Shown here: piece by piece, positions 7,316-20,990 of the stretch
Numbering within the stretch: the stretch's first letter is position 1
Layout of the letters: each line of letters starts with the position of its first letter
Source: a virus
Virus record (IMG/VR): IMGVR_UViG_3300042566_002057
Location: 1-64,000 of that record
Direction: 5' to 3' (one strand)
DNA: 64,000 nucleotides
Notes under the pieces: generated by a model
The model's input: only the letters and a program-made list of their open reading frames with translations
The model's database searches: none
What the model was told of the DNA's origin: nothing
Position numbers and translations under genes: made by a program

Positions 7316-7321
7316 CTAAAT

Positions 7322-7407: not shown

Positions 7408-7534
7408 GGGGATGTAGCTCAGTGGTAGAGAAAACTATCTCTTTTGAAATTTTACCTCGTGAGAGTGTTGATTGAAAGAGTTACTTCGTATATTTGAAAT
7501 TATAAGGTCGTGGGTTCGAATCCCACCATCCCCA
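7408..7534 (+). tRNA. tRNA of uncertain identity with a ~56-nt structured insertion after the D-arm
   Basis: Canonical GGGGATG/CATCCCC acceptor, D-arm and T-arm; insertion at about 7431-7487; irregular anticodon arm around TTGAAA. Confidence 0.65.
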
Positions 7535-7575
7535 CAAAAAGAAAAAGAAAAAATTAATATATAAAAAATAAGATT

Positions 7576-7650
7576 ATGAAAACTATTATGTCAACATCGA
7601 AAAGTTCTAGTCGCTCGTCAAAGATGAGGGAGGTTCGATCGTATTCATAA
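7576..7650 (+). CDS. attenuator leader peptide 3, MKTIMSTSKSSSRSSKMREVRSYS (Ser/Arg)
   Basis: 9 Ser and 3 Arg in 24 codons; GAGGGAGGTTCGA 7626-7638 pairs with the terminator 5' arm. Confidence 0.88.
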   Translation: MKTIMSTSKSSSRSSKMREVRSYS

Positions 7651-7673
7651 TAGTCATAATAAGATATTGTGTT

Positions 7674-7709
7674 AACCCTCGAACCTAAAGTTTGAGGGTT
7701 TTTTGTTTT
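7674..7709 (+). terminator. attenuator terminator 3
   Basis: AACCCTCGAAC-CTAAA-GTTTGAGGGTT plus T-tract. Confidence 0.9.
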
Positions 7710-7713
7710 ATAT

Positions 7714-7787
7714 AGTTCCATAGTTTAATTGGATAAAACACCGGATTACGGCTCCGGAGATTGAGGGTTCGAGTCCTTCTGGAACTA
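7714..7787 (+). tRNA. tRNA-Arg(ACG)
   Basis: CCGGA-TTACGGC-TCCGG. Confidence 0.9.
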
Positions 7788-7793
7788 CAAATT

Positions 7794-7880
7794 GGAAAAG
7801 TAAGAGCAGTTGGTCTAAGCTCGGCGGTCTTGAAAACCGTAGGCCCTAGTGGTGTGTGAGTTCGAGTCTCACCTTTTCCG
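7794..7880 (+). tRNA. tRNA-Ser(TGA)
   Basis: GCGGT-CTTGAAA-ACCGT; long variable arm; G73. Confidence 0.88.
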
Positions 7881-7885
7881 CAAAA

Positions 7886-7969
7886 GGAGAATAAACTAAT
7901 CTGGTGATTAGGACCGCCTGCTAAGCGAGTCGTACTTTATAGTATGGGGTTCAATTCCTCTGTTCTCCG
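7886..7969 (+). tRNA. tRNA-Ser(GCT)
   Basis: CTGCTAA loop; long variable arm; G73. Confidence 0.82.
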
Positions 7970-7975
7970 CTATTT

Positions 7976-8061
7976 GGAGAGTAAACTGATGAGGTCATCA
8001 GCCACGCCTGGAAAGCGTTGGGTGCGTTCAATCGTATGGGTTTCGAGTATTCTGCTCTCCG
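7976..8061 (+). tRNA. tRNA-Ser(GGA)
   Basis: CACGC-CTGGAAA-GCGTT; long variable arm; weak T-stem. Confidence 0.78.
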
Positions 8062-8070
8062 CAAAAATGA

Positions 8071-11000
8071 TTACACAACACCAGTTATTATACCACCAGT
8101 AACAGTAACTATTTGACCATCTGCACTAAATGTTCCTGTCCATCCACTTGATACCGCTGAATCGACATAACCTTTAGTAACAAGTGAGTAAGTAGAAAAA
8201 TTAGCGGTATAATCATCTGTATATACCAGTCCCTTTTGATTAGCATCTGTGACTAATAATCTATTGTCTGAACTTCCATCATTTATATTCTGATCGATAT
8301 TTGTAATTAATATACCAGTAGATAATGATCCATCAAATGCAAAAATTGATGTACTTTGGTTATCTACAAAGACCCTCGAATATGTAGATGAGTCATATGT
8401 TACCTTTAAGTCTATAGCTGTGCCAAAGTTGTATATTCTTGACTCATTCAAGTTATTGTAGACTTTGTTATCAATAAATACAGAAGCTGTCACTGAAAAT
8501 CTTCCTAAGTTATTGATATAAAAGTTCTTTAGATCTCCTTCAATAAAAACTTGTGATGTAAGTGTTCCACCTAATTCAATATTTCCCGAAATACTTTGTG
8601 TTAGACCATTTTCACCCTGAACTTTTTGTGAATCAACATATCCTTTAGTTACAAGTGAATAAGTTGTGAAGTTTCCTACATAATTACCATCATAAACAAT
8701 ACCTTTATTATTGATATTATCAACAACTATTAAAGTGTTATTTATCGAACCATCTGAAATTGCTTGAGATCCAGCATAAGTACTAATAATGCTACTATAT
8801 GTACCAACTCTTGATTCTATTTTAATAGTGTCCATCTCACCTACTAAACCGGATCCCGTTACACCAGGAGCTCCATATATGAGCAAACCACCTGAAATGT
8901 CATGTGCTAAAAATCTAAGTGTGTTAGGACCATGTATCAAAAGTGTTGAACTATTTAAAAATTGTGATCTTGATGAGAAATAAACACTCGAAGTTAATGA
9001 AATTCTAGATGCGCCTAAAAAATGCAAATTTTTGTTGTCTACTTGAACAGTTGTATCTTGAGAAAGTGTTCCACCTAGTCCAATCACTCCTGATGATACA
9101 TAACTTAGACCATTTCCTGGTGTAGTAGATGAAATTGAATCAACATACCCTTTAGTTACAAGTGAATAAGTAGTGAAATTTGCAGTATAATCAGATCTAT
9201 ATACTATACCCTTCTGACTAATATCATCAGCTACTATAATTCTATTATTTGTTGATCCATCGCTTAATGGTTGGTCTTGTGAGTGAAAATTTATTCCAGA
9301 GTATCCAACACCATCAAAATTATATATATTTAATACTCCTGGTGTAATATCTACAATTGAGTAAGTTCCACTAGGATCATCAACTCTAGTATAGTAATTA
9401 TCACCATCATTCCACTGTGCACTAGTATTTGTGGATGGAGAAAAAACTGTATTAACTATAAAAGCTGAAGCTGTGACTGAAAATCTACTAAAATCGTTAA
9501 AATATACATTATTATCATAACCGTCAATAATCACTGGTCCACTTAGAGTTCCTCCTAAACCAATGTATCCTGAACTAAAAGTAAGACCATTATTTACATA
9601 TTGTTGTTTTTCATCAACATATCCTTTAGTAACTAATGAGTAAGTAGTAAAGTTTGGAGAATAATCTCCAACATATACTATTCCTTTATTTGATACATCT
9701 GTGACTAATATATTATTATCCGATGAGCCATCACCAATTGGTTGTGTTTCGTTATGAACTGTAATAGACGATACTCCGTTATTACCCACACTTTCAATAT
9801 TTATTGTACCAATATTTATTCTTGTTCTAGAATAAGTTGCATTATCAATTGTTGCTACTATGTTTTGGTAATCAGCTTGTTGTAAATAAACTTGACTATA
9901 ATAATCAGATGATATAACTCTATTATCTATGTTGTTAGATGCGGTCATTGTAATTCTGTATGCATCTGATATCTCTAAATCATATCCCTGTCCATAGATA
10001 ATTGTATTTAGTGAAAGCACACCACCTAATCCAATTTTATTATCAGTCTGTGACAGACCATTCATCGCATCACTAACAATAGTTTGTTCAGAACCAGAAA
10101 GTCCTGCATTCCAGTATTGAGATGAAGAACTCCAGAATATTTTAGAATAAGTTCCATCTCCTAAATTAACTTCAATTCCAGCATCAATTGCTGGTCCGCT
10201 ATATGTTCCATTAAGAGTTATAAAATTATCCTCGACAACAAGATTTTCTGTATAAATTGTTGATGTAGTTCCTAAAATAGCTAAGTCACCTAAGATAGTA
10301 ACAGAGTCATTAAACTGTCTATTACCATCAATTATGGATTTAAGTGAAACTTGATTACTTCCATTTAATTCAATTGACGTATTATCTACTTGTGATAAGA
10401 AATTACTATCTACATAATTCTTATCTATTAATGAATAAGTAACAAAAGTAGCTGAGTAATCAAATGCGTATCTTAGTCCTTCTAAGTTTCCGGATATAAC
10501 TGTTGAGTTACCGAAATTCAAATTAAATACACTTGGTGAGTAAATAATCAAATCACTTGTATTCATATCAATATATGTCTCTGAAATAGAACCATTATTT
10601 GTTGATATTACGACATTACCACTTGTAAATCCTTCATCTAAGTATATTCTACCACCACCATTACCACTAACTAAAGATGTACCAGTACCCATTACTATAT
10701 TTTGACCCAACGAATCATTGCCCTGAGTTAGTACTTGTTCCAATGTTGGTGTTGTAGAGGCTGGGGCCGTTCCCCAGTAAGCTTGACCAGCACCATCTGT
10801 TAACAATACTTCTGATAATGAACCATCAACATTTGGTAGTTTATAAGCATTATTTATATTAACACTGTTACCTAAATAAACTGTATTTGATTCAGTAGCT
10901 GATAAATTCACACCTCCAATAATAACACTATTATAGATTCCTGATTCAATGAATGCTGACTCAGATGAAATTGATGTTATCGGTGACTGAACAGCTGGTG

Positions 11001-11895
11001 TAGTTGAATAAGTAGTAGTATCTCTTACTAAAATACCATTTTTCCCAGTTAGGTGAGTAGATGAACTAGTTGATGAAAATATACCAATAATTGAGTTTGA
11101 TAAAAATGGTTTGTCTGTTGCTAAAATAACATCATTTGCACTATTAAACTCTAATAAGCCATATCCAGCACCTGATTTAATTCTATCACCATCTTTAATA
11201 ACTAACTGAGGAACATAAACTGTATTATTCTCATCTGCTATCATATCACTTCCTCCAATAATAACTGAGTTTGCTATTCCACCATATGTTGTTGAATTAT
11301 AGCTATTTAAATGTAAACTTGATTTATTAAGAGAACCAATGTCATATGTTGATTCTGATTTTATTATATCAATTTGACCAGAAAGTAAAGATGTATCATT
11401 TAGTGTCACATAATATGAATTCGGTGTGATATTTTGTACACTATAAATGGTTAAGTCTCCTACTCGATTGTTAATACTAATTGAATTTAAGTCAATAGTT
11501 GAAGCAGTATTACTTGTTAAATCAGTCATACTTATTGAAATTTCACCAAGACTTTGCTTGATACTATTTAAACCAAAGTAAGTACCATCATTAGTACTTA
11601 TCTCTAAGGCAGATGTTCCAAAATTAATTTGATTATTGCTTCCAGATGTAATAAGTGAGGTATTAGAACCCATCTCAATAGAGTAGGTTCCAGTGGATGA
11701 ACCCACTTTAAGAACATCTAAAAGTGATGGAGTCGCTGAGATTCCTGCAGTTCCACCAACACCGATTTGTATTATTGTACCGGAAGTATCTTTTTGTTTA
11801 AGAAAGCCATCTAAATCATAACCTATTATCCAACCCTGTGAAGGAGTTGCTGCGGTTGTCATCGAAACGGTAGATCCAAAATTTATAGTGCTCAT
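8071..11895 (-). CDS. long repetitive tail-fibre-like structural protein
   Basis: 1274 aa, Ser/Thr/Gly/Asn rich; five YxxNFTTYSLVTKGYVD-type repeats alternating with NGL...IGLGGTL; upstream AATATATA. Confidence 0.7.
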   Translation of the reverse strand: MSTINFGSTVSMTTAATPSQGWIIGYDLDGFLKQKDTSGTIIQIGVGGTAGISATPSLLDVLKVGSSTGTYSIEMGSNTSLITSGSNNQINFGTSALEISTNDGTYFGLNSIKQSLGEISISMTDLTSNTASTIDLNSISINNRVGDLTIYSVQNITPNSYYVTLNDTSLLSGQIDIIKSESTYDIGSLNKSSLHLNSYNSTTYGGIANSVIIGGSDMIADENNTVYVPQLVIKDGDRIKSGAGYGLLEFNSANDVILATDKPFLSNSIIGIFSSTSSSTHLTGKNGILVRDTTTYSTTPAVQSPITSISSESAFIESGIYNSVIIGGVNLSATESNTVYLGNSVNINNAYKLPNVDGSLSEVLLTDGAGQAYWGTAPASTTPTLEQVLTQGNDSLGQNIVMGTGTSLVSGNGGGRIYLDEGFTSGNVVISTNNGSISETYIDMNTSDLIIYSPSVFNLNFGNSTVISGNLEGLRYAFDYSATFVTYSLIDKNYVDSNFLSQVDNTSIELNGSNQVSLKSIIDGNRQFNDSVTILGDLAILGTTSTIYTENLVVEDNFITLNGTYSGPAIDAGIEVNLGDGTYSKIFWSSSSQYWNAGLSGSEQTIVSDAMNGLSQTDNKIGLGGVLSLNTIIYGQGYDLEISDAYRITMTASNNIDNRVISSDYYSQVYLQQADYQNIVATIDNATYSRTRINIGTINIESVGNNGVSSITVHNETQPIGDGSSDNNILVTDVSNKGIVYVGDYSPNFTTYSLVTKGYVDEKQQYVNNGLTFSSGYIGLGGTLSGPVIIDGYDNNVYFNDFSRFSVTASAFIVNTVFSPSTNTSAQWNDGDNYYTRVDDPSGTYSIVDITPGVLNIYNFDGVGYSGINFHSQDQPLSDGSTNNRIIVADDISQKGIVYRSDYTANFTTYSLVTKGYVDSISSTTPGNGLSYVSSGVIGLGGTLSQDTTVQVDNKNLHFLGASRISLTSSVYFSSRSQFLNSSTLLIHGPNTLRFLAHDISGGLLIYGAPGVTGSGLVGEMDTIKIESRVGTYSSIISTYAGSQAISDGSINNTLIVVDNINNKGIVYDGNYVGNFTTYSLVTKGYVDSQKVQGENGLTQSISGNIELGGTLTSQVFIEGDLKNFYINNLGRFSVTASVFIDNKVYNNLNESRIYNFGTAIDLKVTYDSSTYSRVFVDNQSTSIFAFDGSLSTGILITNIDQNINDGSSDNRLLVTDANQKGLVYTDDYTANFSTYSLVTKGYVDSAVSSGWTGTFSADGQIVTVTGGIITGVV

Positions 11896-11997
11896 CTATC
11901 TGAAATTATTGTTAGAGTATATATTATTTTACAAAGTGTCTTTTATTTTTAACTTTGCAAAAATTTGAGATATAATTTAAAAACACTCACTTAAATT

Positions 11998-12375
11998 ATG
12001 AAATTAGCCTTAATCGCACACGATGGTAAAAAAGCAGATATGGTTGCCTTTGTTATGAAAAGATTAGAATTCTTCAATCATAAAGAGGTAGAGATTGTAG
12101 CGACTGGAACAACCGGTGGTATGATTCAACGAGCCGGAGTGGATAAAGTTAAAACCGTACTTTCAGGACCACTTGGTGGTGACGCTGAAATAGGTTCGAT
12201 GGTTGCTAATGGAGAACTAGATGCTGTTATTTTCTTTAGAGATCCTTTAGACAAACACCCACATGATGTTGATATATCTATGTTAATGAGACTTTGTGAT
12301 GTTCATAATGTTCCATTAGCAACTAATTATAGGAGTGGTGATATTATGGTGAAATATTTTAGAAAAAAGATATGA
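11998..12375 (+). CDS. mgsA: methylglyoxal synthase
   Basis: ALIAHDGKK, ATGTTG, SGPLGGD, FFRDPL, PHDVD and LATN motifs. Confidence 0.97.
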   Translation: MKLALIAHDGKKADMVAFVMKRLEFFNHKEVEIVATGTTGGMIQRAGVDKVKTVLSGPLGGDAEIGSMVANGELDAVIFFRDPLDKHPHDVDISMLMRLCDVHNVPLATNYRSGDIMVKYFRKKI

Positions 12376-12623
12376 CTTGTGGTCAGACAATAGAATTTCT
12401 GACTAGGATATTACAGACTTCTATTGAAAAAAATTTATACGAGTTATCAAATACAATTATCACGATTCAACAACGACTTCTTGAAAAGTATAAATTAGAA
12501 GATATAGTTGAGTTATCTTACTTCACTGAAGTTTTACAGAAATCAATCGGAGGTTTATCTCATGAGGGTAAAGAAATACTATTACCAATTTTAAGAGAAC
12601 TGAAATTAAATACAATTCTTTAA
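12372..12623 (+). CDS. hypothetical protein (C-terminal LRELKLNTIL motif)
   Basis: ORF overlaps the mgsA stop codon. Confidence 0.65.
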   Translation: MTCGQTIEFLTRILQTSIEKNLYELSNTIITIQQRLLEKYKLEDIVELSYFTEVLQKSIGGLSHEGKEILLPILRELKLNTIL

Positions 12624-12991
12624 TACTTAGGTAATTTCATATCAGTTGTGATTTCAATTCTAAAGTTAAATCCAGTATCTTCATCACTTCCATATTTTAC
12701 TTCAGCGTCATAACCCATCTCACCACCAAATGTTGTTGGTTTTGGACCATTCTGAAGTTGTCTACGTCTTTCTTCTTCTCTTCTTCTTTTTTCTTCTTCC
12801 TGAGCAACCATTTGCTCAAATGTTAAGTTATTTTGAGGATTCTGATTATGTTGTATTTCTTCTTGTCTAGTGGAAAATTGAGTAGCATCATATCCATATT
12901 TTCTTAACAGTTCTTCAGCTTCCCAACCGGTAACTTCTCTTTCTGATTCAATGTGTTGTTGATCAACTATTCTTGCTTGTGGTCTTTCCAT
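12620..12991 (-). CDS. hypothetical protein
   Basis: 123 aa ORF. Confidence 0.7.
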   Translation of the reverse strand: MERPQARIVDQQHIESEREVTGWEAEELLRKYGYDATQFSTRQEEIQHNQNPQNNLTFEQMVAQEEEKRRREEERRRQLQNGPKPTTFGGEMGYDAEVKYGSDEDTGFNFRIEITTDMKLPKY

Positions 12992-13008
12992 GATTACATA
13001 TTATTTTT

Positions 13009-13476
13009 TCACAATCTTTTCATTTGTATTGCATTTCCAGCTTGGCTAATACTAAATCCAACCGGTGAGTTCATATCTAAATACCTCTTATATATTTTAG
13101 TTCTAGATGTTACATAGTCTTTTTCTAAGTCTTTTGCTAAACCAACAAAGAAAATGTTTTTAGCCCAATAACATCTTTTCGTAAAGTCATTTAAGATATC
13201 ACCAAATACAGTTTCTAATACTTTATAAGGATTTACATTTACAATCTTACTAACTGAATAAGAACCTTCGTCTTCTACAAAATAAAGTAACTCATAAACA
13301 GTACTTAATTCACCAACTTTATTAACTGGTATGTTTTTAAATTCAACTAAGTAGTTATTATTTTCTGAATCTAAAAATTCATACTTATACATAAATGGAT
13401 CATCTGATATTAAATTAAATCCATAAGAGTCAACTTTTTCATTTATAAAGTTATCATATAATGATATTTTTCTCAT
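13009..13476 (-). CDS. hypothetical protein (N-terminal ISLYDNFINE motif)
   Basis: 155 aa ORF; upstream AATATATA. Confidence 0.7.
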   Translation of the reverse strand: MRKISLYDNFINEKVDSYGFNLISDDPFMYKYEFLDSENNNYLVEFKNIPVNKVGELSTVYELLYFVEDEGSYSVSKIVNVNPYKVLETVFGDILNDFTKRCYWAKNIFFVGLAKDLEKDYVTSRTKIYKRYLDMNSPVGFSISQAGNAIQMKRL

Positions 13477-13560
13477 AAATCTATATATTAAATTAAAAAA
13501 AAGTATTAAAATCCAAAAACAGAGAAAACTTTTTGTTATATATACATATAATTAGAACAT

Positions 13561-13633
13561 CGCGGGGTGGAGCAGTCGGTAGCTCGCTAGGCTCATAACC
13601 TAGAGGTCACACGTTCGAGTCGTGTCCCCGCTA
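13561..13633 (+). tRNA. tRNA-fMet(CAT)
   Basis: CGCGGGGTGGAGCAG start; C1 mismatch; CTCATAA loop. Confidence 0.92.
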
Positions 13634-13700
13634 CTAAAAAAATAAAAATAAATTTGGTAGATTAAAAAAGTCTACTTATATTTGTAAAACAATTAAAGAA

Positions 13701-13778
13701 ATGATGACAACAGTTGCAACATATTATTATGAGGTCGAGAGCAAAAGCTCCGTCAGACGAGTATTAGTTATGTCGTAA
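13701..13778 (+). CDS. attenuator leader peptide 4, MMTTVATYYYEVESKSSVRRVLVMS (Tyr/Glu)
   Basis: TAT TAT TAT GAG GTC GAG; GTCAGAC 13752-13758 pairs with GTCTGAC of the terminator; promoter TTTG 13653 / TATATTTG 13677. Confidence 0.88.
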   Translation: MMTTVATYYYEVESKSSVRRVLVMS

Positions 13779-13800
13779 TTGAAAAATATTATATAACTTA

Positions 13801-13836
13801 AACCCAGTCTGACTTCAGATTGGGTTTTTTGTTTTT
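13801..13836 (+). terminator. attenuator terminator 4
   Basis: AACCCAGTCTGA-CT-TCAGATTGGGTT plus T-tract. Confidence 0.9.
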
Positions 13837-13846
13837 AAATTAATTT

Positions 13847-13914
13847 GGGATGGGTTATGGTGACGGCCGGATCTGTAAAATCCTAGCAGGTGAGTTCGAG
13901 TCTCACGCATCCCA
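13847..13914 (+). tRNA. tRNA-Tyr(GTA)-like, reduced D-arm and short variable region
   Basis: GGAT-CTGTAAA-ATCC; GTGAG-TTCGAGT-CTCAC T-arm; only about 68 nt. Confidence 0.6.
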
Positions 13915-13919
13915 CAAAT

Positions 13920-13953
13920 GGTCCTGTCGACTAATGGTTAGGTCAACACCCTT
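13920..13953 (+). pseudogene. 5' half of a tRNA-Glu-like gene ending in the anticodon loop
   Basis: GGTCCTGTCGACTAATGGTTAGGTCAACACCCTT followed by an A-rich promoter region. Confidence 0.7.
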
Positions 13954-14019
13954 AAAAAATAAAAACAAAAAAGATATTGTGGATTAAAAAAGTTTAATTA
14001 TCTTTGTAAAACAAAAGAC

Positions 14020-14091
14020 GGTCCCATCGTCTAACGGTTAGGACATTAGGTTTTCATCCTAAAAATCGGAGTTCGATTCTCCGTGGGACTA
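14020..14091 (+). tRNA. tRNA-Glu(TTC)
   Basis: TTAGG-TTTTCAT-CCTAA. Confidence 0.92.
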
Positions 14092-14265: not shown

Positions 14266-14270
14266 AACAT

Positions 14271-14353
14271 TGGAAGGTGGCAGAGTGGTTAAATGCGGCG
14301 GACTGTAAATCCGCTCTCTTACGAGTACGGGGGTTCGAATCCCTCTCTTCCAA
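14271..14353 (+). tRNA. tRNA-Tyr(GTA)
   Basis: GCGGA-CTGTAAA-TCCGC; long variable arm. Confidence 0.93.
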
Positions 14354-14448
14354 CAAATAATATAATACTGTATCATGATGTTCCATGATTGAAAGTTTAT
14401 AATAGGGAAAAGAAAACTTTTTATATATACAATAATATAAATAATACA

Positions 14449-14526
14449 ATGAAGAATTTACTTAACATATCAGCATTTATAGCGAACGGCGCGGGGAGTG
14501 ACCGTAGTTGGCTGGTTGTTATGTAA
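14449..14526 (+). CDS. attenuator leader peptide 5, MKNLLNISAFIANGAGSDRSWLVVM (Ile-ATA/Ala/Gly)
   Basis: ATA TCA GCA TTT ATA GCG AAC GGC GCG GGG; TGGCTGG 14509-14515 pairs with CCAGTCA of the terminator. Confidence 0.85.
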   Translation: MKNLLNISAFIANGAGSDRSWLVVM

Positions 14527-14553
14527 ATTTCAGATATTGAAACTAACATACTT

Positions 14554-14582
14554 AACCCAGTCAGAAATGATTGGGTTTTTTT
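14554..14582 (+). terminator. attenuator terminator 5
   Basis: AACCCAGTCA-GAAA-TGATTGGGTT plus T-tract. Confidence 0.9.
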
Positions 14583-14586
14583 ATTT

Positions 14587-14667
14587 CGGCAAGTACCGTT
14601 GGAATCTTATACATTCTATACACGTAGCGGGAAGTTGAAAACGTGGGTTCGAATCCCACCTTGCCGA
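14587..14667 (+). tRNA. non-canonical tRNA-Ile(TAT)-like RNA lacking a normal D-arm
   Basis: CGGCAAG/CTTGCCG acceptor; TGGAAT-CTTATAC-ATTCTA arm; canonical T-arm. Confidence 0.6.
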
Positions 14668-14679
14668 CAAATGATACAA

Positions 14680-14753
14680 GCGGGTATCGTATAATGGTTT
14701 AATTACACCGGCCTTCCAAGTCGGTGATGTCGGTTCGATTCCGGTTACCCGCA
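14680..14753 (+). tRNA. tRNA-Gly(TCC)
   Basis: CCGGC-CTTCCAA-GTCGG. Confidence 0.9.
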
Positions 14754-14758
14754 CAAAT

Positions 14759-14834
14759 GGGCTAGCATGTTCCAAGGCTTCGGCGACTTACCCTTGCAAG
14801 GTAGGTGTGGTGGGTTCGATTCCCATCTGGTCCA
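14759..14834 (+). tRNA. tRNA-Ala(TGC)
   Basis: TTACC-CTTGCAA-GGTAG; G3-U70; irregular D-arm. Confidence 0.8.
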
Positions 14835-14855
14835 CAAAAAAAATAAATATGAGGA

Positions 14856-14981
14856 ATGAAAGTAGTAATTAAAGGCGAATTTAAATCAAGTAAAGTAAAT
14901 CTAAGAAATTCAGAAGAAATTAAATTAGATGTTTATTTAGAAAGACTAATTAAAAAGATTAAAAAGAGAATTAAAAAATAA
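14856..14981 (+). CDS. small basic hypothetical protein (41 aa) inside the tRNA cluster
   Basis: MKVVIKGEFKSSKVNLRNSEEIKLDVYLERLIKKIKKRIKK fills the tRNA spacer. Confidence 0.4.
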   Translation: MKVVIKGEFKSSKVNLRNSEEIKLDVYLERLIKKIKKRIKK

Positions 14982-14986
14982 AATAA

Positions 14987-15062
<76 letters not shown>

Positions 15063-15104
15063 AAATGCCGGGTGATCCACCGTTGAATCACGGTGCCGGC
15101 TCCA

Positions 15105-15178
15105 GGGGGATTAGCTCATTTGGCTAGAGCGCTTGTCTGGCAGACAAGAGGTGACGAGTTCAATCCTCGTATCCTCCA
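15105..15178 (+). tRNA. tRNA-Ala(GGC)
   Basis: CTTGT-CTGGCAG-ACAAG; G3-U70. Confidence 0.92.
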
Positions 15179-15180
15179 CA

Positions 15181-15215
15181 AAAAAGTCTAGTTATTTATT
15201 TAACTAGACTTTTTT
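15181..15215 (+). terminator. intrinsic terminator after the Gly/Ala cluster
   Basis: AAAAAGTCTAGTTA...TAACTAGACTTTTTT. Confidence 0.75.
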
Positions 15216-15228
15216 AATATATAACATT

Positions 15229-15726
15229 ATGAAATATCTTAGAAGATTTAATGAAAATATTAGCATGTACGATCCTGAATGGAAGGAGTCTTTACCTGAA
15301 ACTTTTTCAATATTAAAAGGAGAGGATGATGGTGTACATAAACACGTTTATAAGAAAGGTAATATTATGTTAAATTCTGATATGGTCCAGATAACTTATT
15401 ATAATGAAGACTGGGGTATACCAGATACTTTAGAATTCGATATTCATACAGTTAGAGACACGCAAACTGGTGACTTGAGACTAGATATTGACATTACATA
15501 TGGTAATGAAGTTGCTTGTGAATTTTCAATTGACAAAACAAATGGAGTTAGAGTAATCCAAGACACCACTTATCATTCCAAGTTTGACCCATCTAATACT
15601 GTATTTGCTTTTACTGATGATAGTCTTAAGCAATTTGTGGAATTCTTAAACAGATTTAACACTGGTATAAAAGTAACCACTCATGATTTGAGATTTTTAG
15701 ACGGTTATGATAATTATCAACATTAA
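15229..15726 (+). CDS. hypothetical protein (MKYLRRFNE motif); paralog of the N-terminal domain of 33836..35218
   Basis: Shared EFDIH...DITYG...EF.I...SK(F/Y)D...FN.GI segments. Confidence 0.75.
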   Translation: MKYLRRFNENISMYDPEWKESLPETFSILKGEDDGVHKHVYKKGNIMLNSDMVQITYYNEDWGIPDTLEFDIHTVRDTQTGDLRLDIDITYGNEVACEFSIDKTNGVRVIQDTTYHSKFDPSNTVFAFTDDSLKQFVEFLNRFNTGIKVTTHDLRFLDGYDNYQH

Positions 15727-15814
15727 TTTGACTAATTGATTTTTTTATTTATATTTGTTATTGAGGAAACTTATTTTCAATTTTCTCGTATATTTATAAA
15801 TACAAACACATTTT

Positions 15815-16468
15815 ATGCTTAGTAACGAACAAGTTCAACAAATAAAACAAATTATCGAATCAGATCCAAGATTTGTAACAAAAATCAATGAGGCTATTTC
15901 TTATACTGGTAAAGAAAGTGGTCATTCGCACGCTTCTCCAATGGAAGATATGATTCGTGAAATTCTTATTGATAAATTAGGAGCTAAAAAATCATCCAAA
16001 GACCGTTCACTTGCTGATATCTACTTAAATGATAATTTAATAAATGTTAAGTTTGGTTCTCCAAAAATCCAACCGAATGGTCGACCTAAATATGGTCAAC
16101 CAAATATGTGTGCTATGAGAAGAATTATGAAAGAGTTTTATTATGACTCTACTATTGATTCTTATTACATTATCAAAGTTAATCTAAAAAATGGTGAATA
16201 TACTTTACATGTCTTTGATATGTTAGATTATATTGACTATCTTACTTGGAATTCGGGTACTGGTCAAATTATGTTGAAAGAAAATGACTTTTATAATATA
16301 ATAAATACTTATGTACCAAGTTTAAATATTGAAGAGAAAAAGACTAAAATCAAAGATTTATATGATTTTGGATGTGAGAAGCATATTCTTCTTAGAATAA
16401 ATCAATATATGTCACAGTCTAATAATTCTGAAAGATTTAAAACTCAACTACGAAAACTGTTAGAGTGA
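15815..16468 (+). CDS. putative type II restriction endonuclease (PD-(D/E)XK-like)
   Basis: E...ADIYLNDNLINVKFG catalytic-like pattern; convergent with a methyltransferase. Confidence 0.55.
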   Translation: MLSNEQVQQIKQIIESDPRFVTKINEAISYTGKESGHSHASPMEDMIREILIDKLGAKKSSKDRSLADIYLNDNLINVKFGSPKIQPNGRPKYGQPNMCAMRRIMKEFYYDSTIDSYYIIKVNLKNGEYTLHVFDMLDYIDYLTWNSGTGQIMLKENDFYNIINTYVPSLNIEEKKTKIKDLYDFGCEKHILLRINQYMSQSNNSERFKTQLRKLLE

Positions 16469-16495
16469 AGAAGCCACCGCTTGTCGGTGGTTTTT

Positions 16496-18097
16496 TTATA
16501 CTTTATAAAGTTCTTCAATATTTAAGTTAAAGTCTTCTGGTGTAATTCCATTATTTTTCTTATAGTTAATACTTTCCTTTACTAACTGAATTGCTTTCTG
16601 TTTGTTTTCTTCACTTACCCAGAACGGATAAGGTAATCTTTCGATATCTTTACTTTGTATATTTTTAGTGTGATTAATAACACTTTTTAATATCTCATTA
16701 CATTTAGATGTAAGTAACCACCCAATAATAAAAAGTAGTTCTGATTTATTAACACCTTCTTTTAATACAGCTATCGGAGCTCCTGAGTCTAAAATATAAC
16801 CAGATGGTAAGTATCTTGCTTTTATGGATGATGAAATAAGTTGCCAAGTAAGACCTTCTCTTTTAAAATAAGGTTTACCACCAACACCGTGTAAGTACCA
16901 GTTACCATTTTTCTTAAAAGTTATACAAGCATCGCCATCATCTTTCCAGAATATCACAGTATTTGGTTTACTATAAAGAGTCTCATTAGTCGCTTTATTA
17001 TAATAACAATAATCACTATTTGGAATAGTTATTACAGACGGAGTTTCTTTCTTAGTTATTGAAATATTTCTACGAGTTGATCCAGATTTTTCTAAATCCT
17101 GATACTCTTTTATTTTACCTAATGATAACTTATTATTTCTAGCTTTTGATATTTCTCTTTCTAATGTAATTGGATCATCAAAGAATGTAAAGTCATACTC
17201 TTCAATAATTGTATTGTCTTCTCTGATATCCCTTAAAAAAAGTTCGTTTTTACCAACAGTCATTCCACTTGTTCCAATTAAGTAACTTTGTAGTTTTTCT
17301 CCAACAAAATACTTTACATATTCTTGTTGAATATACCAAGAAAAATTACTTGTTAGAATCATATTATCATAAGGTATTTCAACGCTATCTAATAATATGT
17401 GGTTTTGATGATTTGATTTATGATGTGTTAAAACTATCATTGGATAATCAGTTTCTTCTGAGAAGTTTAATAATCTTTCTATTTGATTATAACCTTGTTC
17501 ATAAAGAAATAATCTTAAACCAGTCATTGTTTTGATTGTAAGAAATGTATCAGATGATATAAAAACTAATTTACCATCTGGTTTAAGACATTCAATTGAT
17601 TTAATCATAAAGAATGAGTAAGTCTCTTTTTTAATTTTGTGACCGTTTCTTATACCATACTTTTTATCCATTTCATCTTGATACTTTGGATCGATTGTTC
17701 CTCCAAATGGTGGATTTCCTATGATATAATCAAAACCATCTACTGTAGGATTGTAAAGAAAGTAATCTGAAAGTAATAAGTTATGAGTTTCTGGTAAGAA
17801 TCCATACTTTTCTTTTATGTTTTCAAGACACTCGTTGTAAAGTTCAGAATCATATTCTACACCATAAAGATTATTATTAAGAATCTTGGTAAGTTTTTCT
17901 TCTACTGTACCTTCATAAATTTCTAAAAATTCATCTATTATACTGATAATAAAATTACCACATCCAAAAGAAGGTTCTAATACTTTATTTGATTTAGTGA
18001 AAGTGTATCTTTTAACAATTGACCGACATTTGTCAATTGGTGTCATAAATTGACCTAATTGTTTCTTCTTTGTTCTCTGTGTTTTAACTTCTGCCAT
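16496..18097 (-). CDS. N6-adenine DNA methyltransferase (gamma class, Eco57I/TaqI-like)
   Basis: GQFMTP, VLEPSFGCGNF (motif I), IIGNPPF (motif IV). Confidence 0.92.
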   Translation of the reverse strand: MAEVKTQRTKKKQLGQFMTPIDKCRSIVKRYTFTKSNKVLEPSFGCGNFIISIIDEFLEIYEGTVEEKLTKILNNNLYGVEYDSELYNECLENIKEKYGFLPETHNLLLSDYFLYNPTVDGFDYIIGNPPFGGTIDPKYQDEMDKKYGIRNGHKIKKETYSFFMIKSIECLKPDGKLVFISSDTFLTIKTMTGLRLFLYEQGYNQIERLLNFSEETDYPMIVLTHHKSNHQNHILLDSVEIPYDNMILTSNFSWYIQQEYVKYFVGEKLQSYLIGTSGMTVGKNELFLRDIREDNTIIEEYDFTFFDDPITLEREISKARNNKLSLGKIKEYQDLEKSGSTRRNISITKKETPSVITIPNSDYCYYNKATNETLYSKPNTVIFWKDDGDACITFKKNGNWYLHGVGGKPYFKREGLTWQLISSSIKARYLPSGYILDSGAPIAVLKEGVNKSELLFIIGWLLTSKCNEILKSVINHTKNIQSKDIERLPYPFWVSEENKQKAIQLVKESINYKKNNGITPEDFNLNIEELYKV

Positions 18098-18200
18098 CTA
18101 AGAAATAGTTTTTAATTATATCGGAAATTTGATAATATGTTTAATTTGTTTATTATCGGAAGTATATACATTTATATATATGTAAAAATAAGTATAGATT

Positions 18201-18371
18201 ATGCCAGCAAAAGATAAAATGTTTTCTTTAAGAATTCCTGAAAAACTTCTGGAAGAATACAGACAATTCTGTGAAGAAAACTCAATTAATATATCTAAAA
18301 GACTTAGAAAGTTTATGGAAAGAGATTTAGAGGTGTGGTATCAGAAGAAAAAATCTAATATCGGAAAATAA
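18201..18371 (+). CDS. ribbon-helix-helix DNA-binding protein (56 aa)
   Basis: MPAKDKMFSLRIPEKLLEEYRQFCEENSINISKRLRKFM pattern; divergent from the MTase; below the ORF-track cutoff. Confidence 0.75.
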   Translation: MPAKDKMFSLRIPEKLLEEYRQFCEENSINISKRLRKFMERDLEVWYQKKKSNIGK

Positions 18372-18395
18372 TATATACAAAAAATAGAATAAACA

Positions 18396-19805
18396 ATGAG
18401 ATATATTAAAGGCTACTCAAAATTTATAAATGAATCAAAAAGAGAAATTGAAAAAAATGCTTTAATTGTTGAAAAGCAAGTACTTAATGAGTTTTCCTCT
18501 GACTTTTGGTCATTGTGTTTAAGATCTAAAATATTCACTAATGAGGAAAAATCTTATATCGAAAATAACTTGATTGGTCAAAATGTTTCTTTGGTAACTG
18601 AAGAGTGGGAATGGTTAGATAAAGCTGTAGATTGGGCTAAAGACAAAGGAGAGAAAATGTTAAACTTTGTCGGTGATAAAATTAAAGCTGTTAAAAATGG
18701 TCTTAAAGAATTTGTCAGCTCAATGGTTGCTTTTGCTAAGAAATTATTTATTTCTGGATTAAATGGTGTTTTATCACAAGCTGCTAAGTTCAAACAAAAA
18801 ATTTCAGGAGACGGTAAAGTAAAAAAACAAATTGAGGAACTAGATCCTCAAAAGTCTAAAAATGAAATCGAAGATTTAAAGAAGACCTTTCAATTTTGGG
18901 CACCTGGTAAAACAGCAGCTGAAGCAAAACCATCAGCTGATGTAGCAGCAGGTCAAATTGAGGCTAAACTAAAAACAGCAGAAGGTGAAGCTGTTTCATC
19001 AACTGAGAAAAACTTAACAGAAGCTGAAGAAGAAGCAAAGAATGAATCAGTATCAACAATTATCTATTCTACTTCAGATGATATTTTAGAAAGTTTTTAT
19101 AATCTTTCATTAATAAAAGAAGCTGAAGAAGCTCCAGAAGGTGGTGAAGAAAAAAAGACAACTGGTCAAAAATGTATTGATTGGATTTTAGGATTCTTAG
19201 GTCAAGAGAAAATGGATCCAGATGCTAAAACAGGAAAGAAATTATTCTGGTGGGGTAAATTATTCTTAAAAATTCTTTCTACTTGTTTAAGTCCTATTCT
19301 AAAAGTAGTTGAAGTTTTAGTTAAAACTGGTGCTAATTTAGCACTTAAAGGTGTTTCAATGATTACAGGAGCTTTAGGTGGTCCCGGTGCTTTTGAATTT
19401 GCTTTACTTGGTGGTTTATGTGGTGGAATTATCGGTATAATATATGATTCACTTATGTTATTTGGTGATGCTGGAGCATCAACTGGTGCTGATACAATGG
19501 GTATGGTTAAAAAGTGGTTAGCACACGCTATAAATGAATCACTTGAATTATTTCCATCTTATAAAACATTAAAGTATATCTTTGCTGGATTTTGTGCTGG
19601 AATGACACTTTGGCATGTTATTGAAGAAATCAAACATTTAATGCATGCTGGTCACGGAGAACACAAAGAAGGCGAAGCGAAGGAAGGAGAAGCTGTAAAA
19701 CCAGGAGAAAAACCTGTGGTAACAAAACCTGGAGAGAAACCTGAACCTGTTAAACCAGGAGAAAAACCAGCAACTGGAGGAGCACCTGCACCAGCAGCGG
19801 CATAA
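18396..19805 (+). CDS. hypothetical protein with hydrophobic segments and a KPGEKP-rich tail (probable virion protein)
   Basis: MRYIKGYSKFINE N-terminal motif; upstream AATATATA. Confidence 0.75.
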   Translation: MRYIKGYSKFINESKREIEKNALIVEKQVLNEFSSDFWSLCLRSKIFTNEEKSYIENNLIGQNVSLVTEEWEWLDKAVDWAKDKGEKMLNFVGDKIKAVKNGLKEFVSSMVAFAKKLFISGLNGVLSQAAKFKQKISGDGKVKKQIEELDPQKSKNEIEDLKKTFQFWAPGKTAAEAKPSADVAAGQIEAKLKTAEGEAVSSTEKNLTEAEEEAKNESVSTIIYSTSDDILESFYNLSLIKEAEEAPEGGEEKKTTGQKCIDWILGFLGQEKMDPDAKTGKKLFWWGKLFLKILSTCLSPILKVVEVLVKTGANLALKGVSMITGALGGPGAFEFALLGGLCGGIIGIIYDSLMLFGDAGASTGADTMGMVKKWLAHAINESLELFPSYKTLKYIFAGFCAGMTLWHVIEEIKHLMHAGHGEHKEGEAKEGEAVKPGEKPVVTKPGEKPEPVKPGEKPATGGAPAPAAA

Positions 19806-19918
19806 AAAATTAAAAATATTTTAATTAAATTTGGTAGAATTAAAACTTTTATCTAATTTTGTATAAAATAATGACAAAAACCTCGAAAGAGAGTAATAAC
19901 TTTTAATATATAACAACA

Positions 19919-20032
19919 ATGAGAACAAATAATACAAATATGATGAACCTGACACTCAATGTGGTGAATATTACGTTATGTAATATTAGACCGTCTGAGG
20001 GTTCCTTCCTATTTAGAAAATTTGTCTCGTAA
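19919..20032 (+). CDS. attenuator leader peptide 6, MRTNNTNMMNLTLNVVNITLCNIRPSEGSFLFRKFVS
   Basis: Codons 1-24 use only M,R,T,N,L,V,I,C, the amino acids of the 14 downstream tRNAs; TCTGAGGGTTC 19994-20004 pairs with the terminator 5' arm. Confidence 0.92.
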   Translation: MRTNNTNMMNLTLNVVNITLCNIRPSEGSFLFRKFVS

Positions 20033-20063
20033 AATGTGACGTATTTATAACTAAATATAAAAA

Positions 20064-20095
20064 GAACCCTCAGATAAAAATCTGAGGGTTTTTTT
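20064..20095 (+). terminator. attenuator terminator 6
   Basis: GAACCCTCAGAT-AAAA-ATCTGAGGGTTT plus T-tract. Confidence 0.92.
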
Positions 20096-20110
20096 ATGTC
20101 TAAAAAATTA

Positions 20111-20195
20111 CGGTAGGTACCCGAGCGGTCTTCAGGGACCAGTCTGATACACTGGGTGAGAAATCACAACGTGGGTTCAAATCCCACCCTACCGA
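20111..20195 (+). tRNA. tRNA-Ile(GAT) with long variable arm
   Basis: CCAGT-CTGATAC-ACTGG; variable hairpin GTGA-GAAA-TCAC. Confidence 0.82.
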
Positions 20196-20203
20196 CAAAA
20201 TAT

Positions 20204-20275
20204 GGCTCCTTCGTCCAATGGATAGGACGTCGCTCTTCTAAAGCGAAGATACTGGTTCGAATCCAGTAGGGGCTA
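20204..20275 (+). tRNA. tRNA-Arg(TCT)
   Basis: TCGCT-CTTCTAA-AGCGA. Confidence 0.9.
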
Positions 20276-20285
20276 CAAATAAAAT

Positions 20286-20367
20286 GCCGAGGTGGTGGAA
20301 TGGTAGACACACCAGTTTAAGAAGCTGGTATCCTCAGGGTGTGAGAGTTCGAGTCTCTCCCTCGGTA
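20286..20367 (+). tRNA. tRNA-Leu(AAG)
   Basis: CCAGT-TTAAGAA-GCTGG; Leu-type body with long variable arm. Confidence 0.85.
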
Positions 20368-20373
20368 CAAAAT

Positions 20374-20462
20374 GGGCTTGTAGCTGATTTGGTTTTAGCT
20401 GGTGACTGTTAATCACTGTATGAAAAATTGAAATAAAGTAGGTTCGAATCCTACCTGGCCCG
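20374..20462 (+). tRNA. tRNA-Asn(GTT) with long variable region
   Basis: GGTGA-CTGTTAA-TCACT; G73. Confidence 0.78.
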
Positions 20463-20468
20463 CAAATC

Positions 20469-20539
20469 GCCCCGATGGCGTAAAGGTAGCGTATCTCTTT
20501 TACATGGAGAAGGCAGTGGTTCGATACCACTTCGGGGTA
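20469..20539 (+). tRNA. tRNA-Val(TAC)
   Basis: TCTCT-TTTACAT-GGAGA. Confidence 0.85.
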
Positions 20540-20546
20540 CTAAAAT

Positions 20547-20619
20547 TGTCAGTTAGCTCATTTGGTAGAGCACTTGTCTGATACACAAGAGGTGGTGGGA
20601 TCGTAACCCGCACTGACAA
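20547..20619 (+). tRNA. tRNA-Ile(GAT)
   Basis: CTTGT-CTGATAC-ACAAG; ATCGTAA T-loop. Confidence 0.87.
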
Positions 20620-20625
20620 CAACAA

Positions 20626-20708
20626 GCACCTGTGGTCGAGTGGTGTCGTAAGACGAGAGGCACTGGATTGCAAACCCAGTCACGGGGGTTCGAATCCCTC
20701 CAGGTGCT
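20626..20708 (+). tRNA. tRNA-Cys(GCA) with extra hairpin in the D-loop
   Basis: TTGCAAA loop; U73; GTC-GTAA-GAC insert. Confidence 0.82.
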
Positions 20709-20716
20709 CAAAATAT

Positions 20717-20788
20717 GCTGATGTCGTATAATGGTTATTACATTGCCTTTGTAACGCAAATATGTGGGTTCGACTCCCTCCATCAGCT
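20717..20788 (+). tRNA. tRNA-Thr(TGT)
   Basis: GCTGATG/CATCAGC acceptor; TTTGTAA loop. Confidence 0.82.
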
Positions 20789-20794
20789 CTAAAA

Positions 20795-20866
20795 TGTCTC
20801 GTAGTTTAATGGGAAAACGTTACCTTGACATGGTAAAGAGAGTGGGATCGTTACCCACCGAGACAA
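20795..20866 (+). tRNA. tRNA-Val(GAC)
   Basis: TTACC-TTGACAT-GGTAA. Confidence 0.85.
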
Positions 20867-20871
20867 CAAAA

Positions 20872-20990
20872 AATAATGGATGGTGATTGCAAGGGTTACT
20901 TCGTTTAATGACTAAACAATTGACTTTTAATCAATCTACACTGGTTCGATCCCAGTAGTATATCACTCTTCAAGGCTTTCCTCCGTTATT
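20872..20990 (+). ncRNA. tRNA-Lys(TTT)-like core embedded in a structured element, no normal acceptor end
   Basis: D-like arm, ATTGA-CTTTTAA-TCAAT and ACTGG-TTCGATC-CCAGT, flanked by TGATTGCAAGGGTTACTTCG and ACTCTTCAAGGCTTTCCTCC. Confidence 0.6.

Follow-up and report, generated by a model that had tools for sequence, protein, structure and literature searches.

Two tRNA-associated RNAs of a phage genome are probable Y RNAs joining a conserved Ro60 handle to tRNA modules

The 64-kb window analysed here, which is part of IMG/VR record IMGVR_UViG_3300042566_002057 (152 kb in full, 68% complete), contains two loci that are probably phage Y RNAs. From comparative sequence data, we put the probability of this reading at about 80%. 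In each locus, a conserved stem formed by two strands (halves A and B; together the handle) would dock Ro60, and a variable domain would mimic a tRNA. Ro60, named Rsr in bacteria, is a ring-shaped RNA-surveillance protein with TROVE and vWA domains; like the Y RNAs, it is conserved across organisms from bacteria to humans. Both loci belong to an RNA family that shows covariation and is linked in phage genomes to Ro60 genes. Rather than a new intron or ribozyme, the two-part element represents an RNA of a known kind, whose arrangement here is unusual. What stands out is locus 1, an otherwise full tRNA whose 7-bp acceptor stem is open and whose anticodon arm is a GNRA-capped handle.

Half A is present exactly at 7469-7488 and 20884-20903, as first noticed, and no third copy was found in the window even when up to two mismatches were allowed (0/100 shuffles matched). 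Half B pairs with half A to form helix P2 at both loci: CUCUUUU (7439-7445) with GAAAGAG (7474-7480) in locus 1, and CUCUUC (20966-20971) with GcAAGGG (20889-20895) in locus 2. While the pairing of the halves stands, the two-part description is incomplete, as the element also has P1, an outer helix in which a bulged U (7466, 20881) is conserved. The order of parts is as the earlier note described it: locus 2 runs from half A through D-like, anticodon-like and T arms to half B, and locus 1 has tRNA 5' part, half B, CUC-GUGA-GAG cap, half A and tRNA 3' part. The comparative data strongly support the proposed circular permutation, with the two loci as permuted forms of one design, a bipartite pairing element with tRNA-like domains.

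From the outside in, the handle consists of P1, the bulged U, 2 bp, a 5 x 7-8 nt internal loop, a 7-bp P2 and single-stranded UUACUUC. The internal loop is asymmetric, with 5'-UGAYN facing a 7-8-nt loop that ends in UU. Two motifs are found in the handle: GG(U/C)GA..G in the 5' strand of half A, and YUAY (UUAC). Covariance models, a search proposed in the earlier note, recovered both loci. Model R2, from Ro60-adjacent RNAs, matched locus 2 at 20875-20987 (31.3 bits, E 1.6e-6), the sole significant R2 match in the window and the 152-kb record. Model R3, for which capped copies of other phages (crAss001 among them) were used, matched locus 1 at 7439-7487 (56.6 bits, E 2.4e-8; window search, filters off). 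With filters off, there was no further significant R2 or R3 match in the rest of the window. A lack of other instances or of covariation had been named as counting against the element. We found more than 100 copies adjoining Ro60 genes that are free-standing or close non-tRNA inserts, and all 15 helix pairs changed on both sides (15/15; 95.3% of cells paired). The covariation score was 0.924, compared to 0.22 in shuffled controls and no more than 0.15 when the partners were slid, in an alignment that was fitted to the model and so somewhat favours the structure. Single-sequence folding of the two loci was not significant (z = -1.9 and -1.4).

Locus 2 (20875-20987, + strand, model R2) is a putative Y RNA in which the Ro60 handle closes a core of D-like, anticodon-like and T arms. 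In the R2 alignment, half A (20875-20902, +) comprises the P1 strand AAUGGA, bulged U20881, GG, the loop UGAUU, the P2 strand GcAAGGG and UUACUUC; half B (20965-20987, +) comprises the P2 3' strand (A)CUCUUC, the loop AAGGCUUU, CC and the P1 3' strand UCCGUU. The tRNA-like core between them (20903-20964, +, Rfam tRNA) has a D-like arm without GG (GUUU-AAUGACU-AAAC), an anticodon-like arm whose loop corresponds to Lys UUU (AUUGA-CUUUUAA-UCAAU) and a T arm (ACUGG-UUCGAUC-CCAGU). It ends in an acceptor remnant, AGUA, that pairs with UACU at 20897-20900. The earlier statement that there is no real acceptor end therefore needs amending, since this 4-bp remnant is kept. The Rfam tRNA model matched 20897-20960 with 42.9 bits over model positions 4-67 only, and locus 2, without an acceptor end, is not a canonical tRNA.

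The Rfam tRNA model (RF00005) aligned to the whole of locus 1 (7408-7534, +; 45.4 bits), a putative Y RNA of tRNA shape with an open acceptor stem and the capped handle replacing the anticodon arm. It is not a canonical cloverleaf, as 72 nt stand where a 17-nt anticodon arm is expected. From the sequence and the Rfam alignment, the 5' part (7408-7431, +) comprises the acceptor strand GGGGAUG, U8 and A9, and the D arm GCUC-AGUGGUA-GAGA with G18 G19. Half B, assigned by model R3 (7439-7458, +), follows with the P2 3'-type strand CUCUUUU, the loop GAAAUUUU, AC and CUC, the last two pairing with GU and GAG of half A. A GUGA tetraloop of the GNRA type (7459-7462, +) caps P1; in other capped members this position is GCAA, GAAA or GUAA. 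Half A (7463-7487, +) is made up of GAG, bulged U7466, GU, the loop UGAUU, the P2 strand GAAAGAG and UUACUUC with the YUAY motif. Next is a hairpin, UAUA-UUUGAAAU-UAUA (7489-7504, +), the counterpart of the YrlA V stem-loop. Its loop has 8 nt (7 or 9 nt in close homologues) and is thus no canonical anticodon loop. The 3' part (7505-7534, +; sequence and Rfam alignment) contains AGGUC, the T arm GUGGG-UUCGAAU-CCCAC, the acceptor strand CAUCCCC and discriminator A. A Levitt pair between C48 and G15 is possible, and the gene encodes no CCA. Three homologues (L345, L353 and L355) have a compensatory change in the T stem, from GUGGG/CCCAC to GUUGG/CCAAC.

The element of locus 1 had been described as sitting like an intron after the D-stem. 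It does lie inside a tRNA, but it replaces the anticodon arm and interrupts no complete arm. We consider it highly improbable that locus 1 is a working tRNA gene with a removable small intron or a self-cleaving or self-splicing element, and locus 2 a permuted or degenerate copy of a mobile element. The acceptor stem, D arm and T arm of locus 1 are perfect, the element occurs within different tRNA scaffolds across phages, which could suggest mobility, and ARAGORN, which in normal mode called neither locus as a tRNA, can be forced to an intron model. However, excision would leave a 4-bp stem with the 8-nt loop, again of 7 or 9 nt in close homologues, and no canonical anticodon arm. Furthermore, most family members are without any tRNA exons, being minimal 70-nt forms at Ro60 genes whose P1 ends are open. 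No Rfam ribozyme or intron family matched either locus or the minimal copy of phage RsoM2USA at E <= 10, and the strongly conserved nucleotides fall on the published Ro60-binding and YUAY motifs (PMC4201824). Because more than 100 copies are free-standing or non-tRNA, with such copies at Ro60 genes, because the Rfam searches were negative, and because the handle is present in the published CcrColossus Y RNA loci, we reject the earlier suggestion of an undescribed intron or ribozyme.

The linkage of the family to Ro60 was seen from both directions. For a sample of 80 viral loci, the sole criterion was that a relative of the TROVE proteins of the element-linked phages is encoded. Covariance model R1 matched in 72 of these Ro60 (TROVE+vWA) loci, 70 with E <= 0.01, and all R1 matches are on the same strand as the TROVE ORF and flank it, often in tandem. 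A TROVE protein is encoded in 12 of 14 other phage records with the element, and in six independent contigs the element and the TROVE gene lie directly side by side on one strand. The adjacent proteins combine TROVE with a Ro60-type vWA domain that has the DxSGS MIDAS motif. Model R2 detected tandem copies adjoining the TROVE genes of CcrColossus (with GGCGA), Xanthomonas phage Tenjo, crAss001 and Bacillus phage G, and the handle is also present in RsoM2USA. In RsoM2USA copy 2 and two further members (L146, L139), the parts follow one another as in YrlA (T arm, closed acceptor hairpin, D arm). These data show at least four topologies in which one Ro60 handle and tRNA modules come together: a minimal form, a YrlA-like permuted one, a Yrn1-like closed D/anticodon/T core, and a full tRNA with an open acceptor stem.

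Both window loci are within tRNA arrays, away from any Ro60 gene. A phage-specific HMM at maximum sensitivity detected no TROVE gene in any part of the record (152 kb, 68% complete), which counts against the Y RNA reading. Three close relatives (G007, G008 and G009) encode a homologous locus-1 RNA together with a TROVE gene. In G009, which has both modules 10.9 kb apart, the TROVE gene is 124 kb upstream, a position that projects beyond the 5' end of the window's record. In the 642-kb relative LR756502, the RNA is present and no TROVE gene was detected, so such an RNA may work in the absence of a phage Ro60 as well.

The earlier note had also proposed a scaffold presenting decoy anticodon loops to host nucleases. 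The scaffold was right in spirit; what it is appears to be a putative Ro60 docking stem. A common reading of phage tRNA arrays is that they counter host defences directed at tRNAs, and the position of the loci within such arrays would suit decoys or sensors for host anticodon nucleases, with tRNA-like loops (e.g. Lys UUU) held on a stable scaffold and the stem serving stability or a non-Ro60 protein. So would the canonical CUUUUAA (Lys UUU) loop, found in locus 2 and in the unrelated L100/G001 family, the canonical 7-nt loops GUG, GUU, CUU and CAU of other members, and LR756502 with its RNA and no TROVE gene. The idea is weakened because close homologues of locus 2 differ in their anticodon-like loops (UUU; CAA and UAA in LR756502 and LR745206). 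Loop length also varies in the locus-1 lineage, minimal members are without any tRNA-like part, and decoys would not account for the tight linkage to Ro60 genes on the same strand. We therefore regard decoys as improbable.

Another reading, possible but doubtful, takes locus 1 as a bifunctional tRNA that would be processed, CCA-tailed and possibly aminoacylated, its handle bringing Ro60 to tRNA-handling machinery such as synthetases, EF-Tu or the ribosome. The 7-bp acceptor stem is present in all eight independent capped lineages (perfect in most), discriminator A in most, and CCA is encoded in one, L285. The tertiary-fold elements of locus 1 are intact (U8, A14, G18 G19, G15:C48, T loop UUCGAAU). 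Nevertheless, there is no anticodon arm for synthetases requiring one. It should be noted that this reading extends the Y RNA explanation and does not replace it. In its broadest and similarly doubtful form, the capped tRNA-embedded RNA (locus 1, crAss001 and several huge phages) would be a true hybrid, with tRNA-like maturation, a CCA tail and perhaps aminoacylation in addition to the Ro60 handle, and would directly couple Ro60 surveillance to the tRNA or translation machinery, or bait anticodon nucleases. The topologies also touch on the proposal that dimeric tRNA transcripts gave rise to YrlA. If the hybrid were true, the source of YrlA-type RNAs would instead be single tRNAs whose anticodon arm was elaborated before they became permuted.

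For the Y RNA reading, we propose that the conserved handle docks Ro60, with candidate binding also for the capped P1 of only 3+2 bp, and that the variable domain attached to P2 acts as a tRNA mimic. In locus 2 the handle would close the D/anticodon/T core, in the order of Yrn1; in locus 1 the GNRA-capped handle would serve as the anticodon arm, making the RNA an unpermuted counterpart of YrlA. Both may be transcribed together with the tRNA arrays and then cut free when RNase P and 3' processing act on the neighbouring tRNAs. The partner Ro60 could be encoded in the missing part of the phage genome or be that of the host. Through the tRNA-like elbow or UUACUUC, Ro60 might be tethered to a tRNA-handling enzyme or to an exoribonuclease such as PNPase, perhaps for RNA quality control or repair during infection. 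Counterparts of the window loci exist in huge phages and in the cultivable crAss001, and tRNA finders and Rfam miss or mis-call such Y RNAs in phage tRNA arrays.

The closest known relatives are the YrlA and YrlB Y RNAs of bacteria and phages (Rfam RF02553; PMC4201824; Wang et al. 2018, 10.1101/312249). P1, the 5 x 8-nt internal loop and the 7-bp P2 are also in the Rfam YrlA consensus; common to both are 5'-strand GG(C/U)GA..G and YUAY (UUAC), the V hairpin, a tRNA-like effector domain and family genes adjoining Ro60. The half A motif GG(U/C)GA..G corresponds to GNCGAAN0-1G of YrlA, described with the YUAY motif and phage YrlA RNAs by Chen et al. 2014 (PMC4201824), and to GGUCCGA of vertebrate Y RNA. 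Literal GNCGAAN0-1G is unmatched at the two loci, which have U for the published C (GGUGAUUG in locus 2, GUUGAUUG in locus 1). The CcrColossus Y RNAs, published in 2014 (PMC4201824), scored 26-47 bits with R2 and have GGCGA in the same model column, so the U form is a variant of one motif. Locus 1 and locus 2 differ from YrlA in the conserved bulged U of P1, in having neither the T arm-closed acceptor hairpin-D arm order of YrlA nor an adjoining Ro60 gene, and in lying within tRNA arrays. The anticodon-like arm of locus 2 and the free acceptor end of locus 1 are likewise without a counterpart in published YrlA. The earlier note had held that a match to a described Rfam family would speak against a new element. 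In substance there is one, as architecture and motifs are alike and related phage copies with a permuted tRNA module matched Rfam YrlA over its full length, although below threshold (30-56 bits; RF02553 gathering threshold 69 bits), whereas the window loci themselves matched neither Rfam YrlA nor Y_RNA at E <= 10.

Yrn1 of Deinococcus radiodurans, compared by description only, resembles locus 2 in topology: its Ro-binding stem surrounds, in tRNA order, D-like features, an 'anticodon arm' of 5 bp and a T arm (PMC4201824); its 'anticodon' loop has 6 nt, in contrast to the canonical 7-nt CUUUUAA of locus 2. Thermus phage phiLo encodes its own Ro60 and adjacent Yrl1/Yrl2 with a CGAA-type motif, which bind Ro60 and the host PNPase in vitro (PMC12135203). 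Its locus matched our model only weakly (14-17 bits), and, unlike for the window loci, no tRNA-like domain is described for Yrl1/Yrl2 (PMC12135203). In tmRNA and the TYMV tRNA-like structure, as in locus 1, an open acceptor/T-arm limb is kept and a non-tRNA extension replaces the anticodon arm. Both are aminoacylated; neither has sequence or family kinship to locus 1, where Rfam tmRNA gave chance-level fragments only. Finally, permuted tRNA genes and non-canonical tRNA introns of archaea and red algae share with the phage loci permuted tRNA modules and an insert near position 26. Those genes are processed to ordinary tRNAs via bulge-helix-bulge motifs, whereas the phage insert is a proposed protein-docking stem that also occurs without a tRNA, in phages of bacteria.

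The source of the window is a large phage; the window contains 36 tRNA genes (ARAGORN) and encodes a DNA methylase. An earlier note had described a two-part element associated with tRNAs, and this observation was confirmed: half A matches exactly at 7469-7488 and 20884-20903, and these are the only two matches in the window. No match was found in 100 shuffles, with up to 2 mismatches permitted. Comparison with homologues found by blastn in two uncultured phages of 630-640 kb and in Ralstonia phage RsoM2USA shows that halves A and B are opposite strands of a single stem. From the outside inward, this handle comprises helix P1, an invariant bulged U, two further base pairs (GG/CC, AG/CU or GU/AC), an internal loop of 5 nt (UGAYN) versus 7-8 nt ending in UU, the 7-bp helix P2 and the strand UUACUUC. 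The last is treated as single-stranded because no pairing partner in the linker 3' of the D arm was conserved across the lineages compared. Single-sequence minimum free energy folding was not significant for either locus.

The domain joined to P2 varies between copies. RsoM2USA has two tandem copies; the insert of one is only a 24-nt hairpin, and the other carries a circularly permuted tRNA made up of a T arm, a closed acceptor hairpin and a D arm. At locus 2 (20875-20987), the stem encloses a D-like arm, an anticodon-like arm (CUUUUAA) and a T arm. The Rfam tRNA model matches 20897-20960 there (42.9 bits) over model positions 4-67 only, and the tRNA core thus lacks an acceptor end. Since its D loop is without GG, locus 2 may be a looser tRNA mimic. 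At locus 1 (7408-7534), the stem is inside out: a GUGA tetraloop closes P1, and the ends of the molecule form a normal 7-bp tRNA acceptor stem. The same model matches all of 7408-7534 (45.4 bits), with 72 nt in place of the 17-nt anticodon arm, and the elements of the tRNA tertiary fold are kept (U8, A14, G18 G19, G15:C48 and UUCGAAU). The two loci had been read from the sequence as circular permutations of each other, and this is correct, as the stem encloses the core at locus 2 and is capped and inverted at locus 1. ARAGORN, when forced to an intron model at locus 1, returned tRNA-Phe (GAA) with a 35-nt intron; this call was rejected, its 'anticodon loop' belonging to the conserved handle.

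More than 118 loci came out of a pattern scan of viral contigs, and in about 70 the element is complete, with covarying P1 and P2. A scan for the GT variant recovered mostly an unrelated repeated sequence family, with real copies only in two viral loci, L285 and L314. As the rigid descriptor scan was noisy, covariance models were used in its stead. In genome contigs, no matching B half accompanied the A-half pattern among the at least 120 matches listed, and from these the exact A-half sub-motif looks phage-borne.

Pfam TROVE, a domain of the Ro60 protein, was positive in 8 of 9 foreign element-carrying records, and in 12 of 14 after later additions. On six independent contigs, the RNA lies ~100-300 nt from the TROVE open reading frame on the same strand. 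The adjacent proteins combine TROVE with a Ro60-type vWA domain bearing a MIDAS motif, so they are Ro60 homologues. We also ran the test in reverse, using 80 viral loci picked solely for encoding a relative of these TROVE proteins and a covariance model derived from three minimal copies. Matches were found in 72 of the 80 (70 at E <= 0.01), many with several tandem copies. In the matched loci, all matches are on the strand of the TROVE gene and immediately up- or downstream of it. Across the resulting alignment of 150 sequences, base pairing holds in 95.3% of cells, with compensatory changes at each of the 15 pairs. Covariation scores 0.924, whereas shuffles reach 0.22 and slid partners no more than 0.15; the alignment is model-fitted, which favours the structure, yet the margin is large.

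A model rebuilt from the Ro60-flanking RNAs (R2) was scanned across the whole window with filters off. Its single significant match was 20875-20987 (31.3 bits, E 1.6e-6; next best E 0.26), and this was likewise the sole significant match in the whole 152-kb record. Because locus 1 is permuted, R2 cannot read it, so other capped copies were sought by pattern scan. Eight other capped lineages were found, with GNRA caps GCAA, GAAA and GUAA and with covarying P1 and P2, each inside a tRNA that has its own, mostly perfect, 7-bp acceptor stem. Bacteroides phage crAss001 has two further capped copies directly 3' of its Ro60 gene, gp96. A model of six capped copies from outside the window's lineage, both crAss001 copies included (R3), found 7439-7487 as its sole significant match (56.6 bits, E 2.4e-8). 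The close homologues of locus 1 (L345, L353 and L355) show a compensatory T-stem change, GUGGG/CCCAC to GUUGG/CCAAC. Both loci thus belong to an RNA family with covarying helices, tight linkage to Ro60 genes, and the architecture and motifs of YrlA, a Y RNA (small Ro60 partner RNA) family.

The earlier note had suggested an undescribed small intron or ribozyme. The permuted pairing element it described stands; the intron or ribozyme reading does not, as the element is most probably a known kind of RNA. Exons are absent from most family members, none of the known catalytic families was matched, and excision would leave no usable anticodon arm. Rfam searches of both loci and the minimal RsoM2USA copy at E <= 10 returned tRNA only, with no ribozyme, intron, Y_RNA or YrlA match. 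We consider this reading very improbable. The loop of the hairpin 3' of UUACUUC measures 7, 8 or 9 nt among close homologues of locus 1, indicating that it is not a decoding anticodon loop. Such RNAs could instead serve as decoys for anticodon nucleases, and Lys-UUU loops do recur in two lineages; however, close homologues have CAA or UAA loops and minimal forms have no anticodon-like loop, so a decoy role seems unlikely.

No TROVE gene was detected in the 152-kb record, either by Pfam or with an HMM of phage TROVE proteins at maximum sensitivity, and there was no match among the ten large window open reading frames scanned. The record is 68% complete (CheckV). Its close relatives G007 (436 kb, 95% complete), G008 and G009 all have a homologous locus-1 RNA and a TROVE gene. 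In G009, the two modules are 10.9 kb apart, compared to 13.4 kb here, and the TROVE gene is 124 kb upstream of them; the equivalent spot here is beyond the 5' end of the record. LR756502.1 (642 kb) has a locus-2-type Y RNA at 402.4 kb and no TROVE gene detectable by Pfam or by search with the LR745206 protein, although its relative LR745206.1 has TROVE at 241 kb. This leaves room for use of a host Ro60 or for Ro60-independent action. RtcB (PF01139) was not found in this record or four relatives, so there is no rtcBA-type operon context.

Locus 2 is 7 nt 3' of a tRNA-Val gene and 9 nt 5' of a tRNA-Leu gene, and locus 1 follows three tRNA-Lys genes. Both RNAs would be transcribed inside tRNA arrays and released through processing of their neighbours, locus 1 itself having the shape of an RNase P substrate. 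The handle would then dock Ro60, and the tRNA-like domain or the UUACUUC strand may recruit a tRNA-binding enzyme or exoribonuclease. PNPase recruitment of this kind has been shown for Rsr and Y RNA in Deinococcus and, with phage phiLo, in vitro (PMC12135203). A hybrid that is also CCA-tailed or charged like a tRNA would extend this Y RNA reading without contradicting it, but we regard this as unlikely.

Other tRNA-related features of the window should also be noted. The Lys(UUU), Ile(GAU), Asn(GUU), Gln(UUG) and Pro(UGG) tRNAs at 7228-7316, 20111-20196, 20374-20463, 35760-35843 and 35850-35938 are 84-90 nt long owing to long variable regions, some hairpin-forming, an uncommon feature in tRNAs that normally belong to class I. 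Near the long ones are Lys, Ile, Gln and Pro copies of normal length; a second Asn gene was not called. The Gln-Pro-Asp trio is tandemly duplicated (35466-35696 and 35760-36017), and it is the second trio whose Gln and Pro have long variable arms. Directly after the tRNA array containing locus 2 is a class I Glu/Gln-type aminoacyl-tRNA synthetase gene (22159-23616, + strand; PF00749, 247 bits, with an anticodon-binding domain as well). The GOLLD RNA at 44297-44706 (+ strand; Rfam RF02032, 298.9 bits) is full-length and flanked by two odd tRNA-like genes (43456-43542 and 44720-44794), which ARAGORN calls 'tRNA-???' with 2-nt anticodons.

In crAss001 (L498, reverse strand of NC_049977.1), positions 2912-3630, 3' of the early-expressed gp96, hold two minimal handle RNAs, capped handles in tRNAs at 3088-3231 and 3345-3482, and an additional R2 match at 3485-3628 (26.9 bits). 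None of these is annotated in NC_049977.1. crAss001 is a cultivable model for testing the whole handle family. In L285 (IMGVR_UViG_3300022843_000009, reverse strand, ~5380-5640), a capped chimera encodes ACCA at its 3' end, lacks a D arm and is directly followed by a second, open-ended handle whose internal loop is UGAAA, compared to UGAYN in most copies.

More than 250 bacteria and phages have YrlA-type Y RNAs adjoining their Ro60 genes (Chen et al. 2014; PMC4201824). Besides a tRNA-like domain and a 'V' stem-loop, these RNAs carry a conserved YUAY and a 5' motif, GNCGAAN0-1G, that is the presumed contact with Ro60 (PMC4201824). The Rfam YrlA consensus (RF02553) has the layout of the handle, with 6 bp in P1, 7 bp in P2 and a 5 x 8-nt internal loop between them. 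It is matched from end to end by phage copies with a permuted tRNA module, at 30-56 bits and so under the 69-bit threshold. R2 found eight tandem handle RNAs upstream of the TROVE gene gp139 of Caulobacter phage CcrColossus (L497, 262-1455), a phage named in the YrlA literature (PMC4201824). Those copies have GGCGA where GGUGA stands here, and GUUACUUC is identical. One of them overlaps an annotated tRNA-Gln (673-740), which may be the tRNA-like part of the Y RNA. R2 copies also adjoin the TROVE genes of Xanthomonas phage Tenjo, crAss001 and Bacillus phage G, and Gordonia phage Trax and Thermus phage phiLo are matched weakly. Based on this layout, these motifs and these matches, the handle is most readily identified with the Ro60-binding module already known, here with U for C, and its UUAC with the published YUAY; the element is most probably the Ro60 handle of a Y RNA, a known kind of RNA, in variant form. 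In the literature searched, no description of the locus-1 topology was found, and what is new here relative to that literature is a capped handle within a tRNA having an open acceptor stem. By contrast, the YrlA acceptor stem is closed, without a free CCA end, unlike tmRNA and the TYMV tRNA-like structure (Wang et al.; 10.1101/312249), and dimeric tRNA transcripts have been discussed as the source from which YrlA arose (10.1101/312249). Deinococcus Yrn1, compared by its description, has the topology of locus 2, with arms in tRNA order and a 5-bp 'anticodon arm' (PMC4201824).
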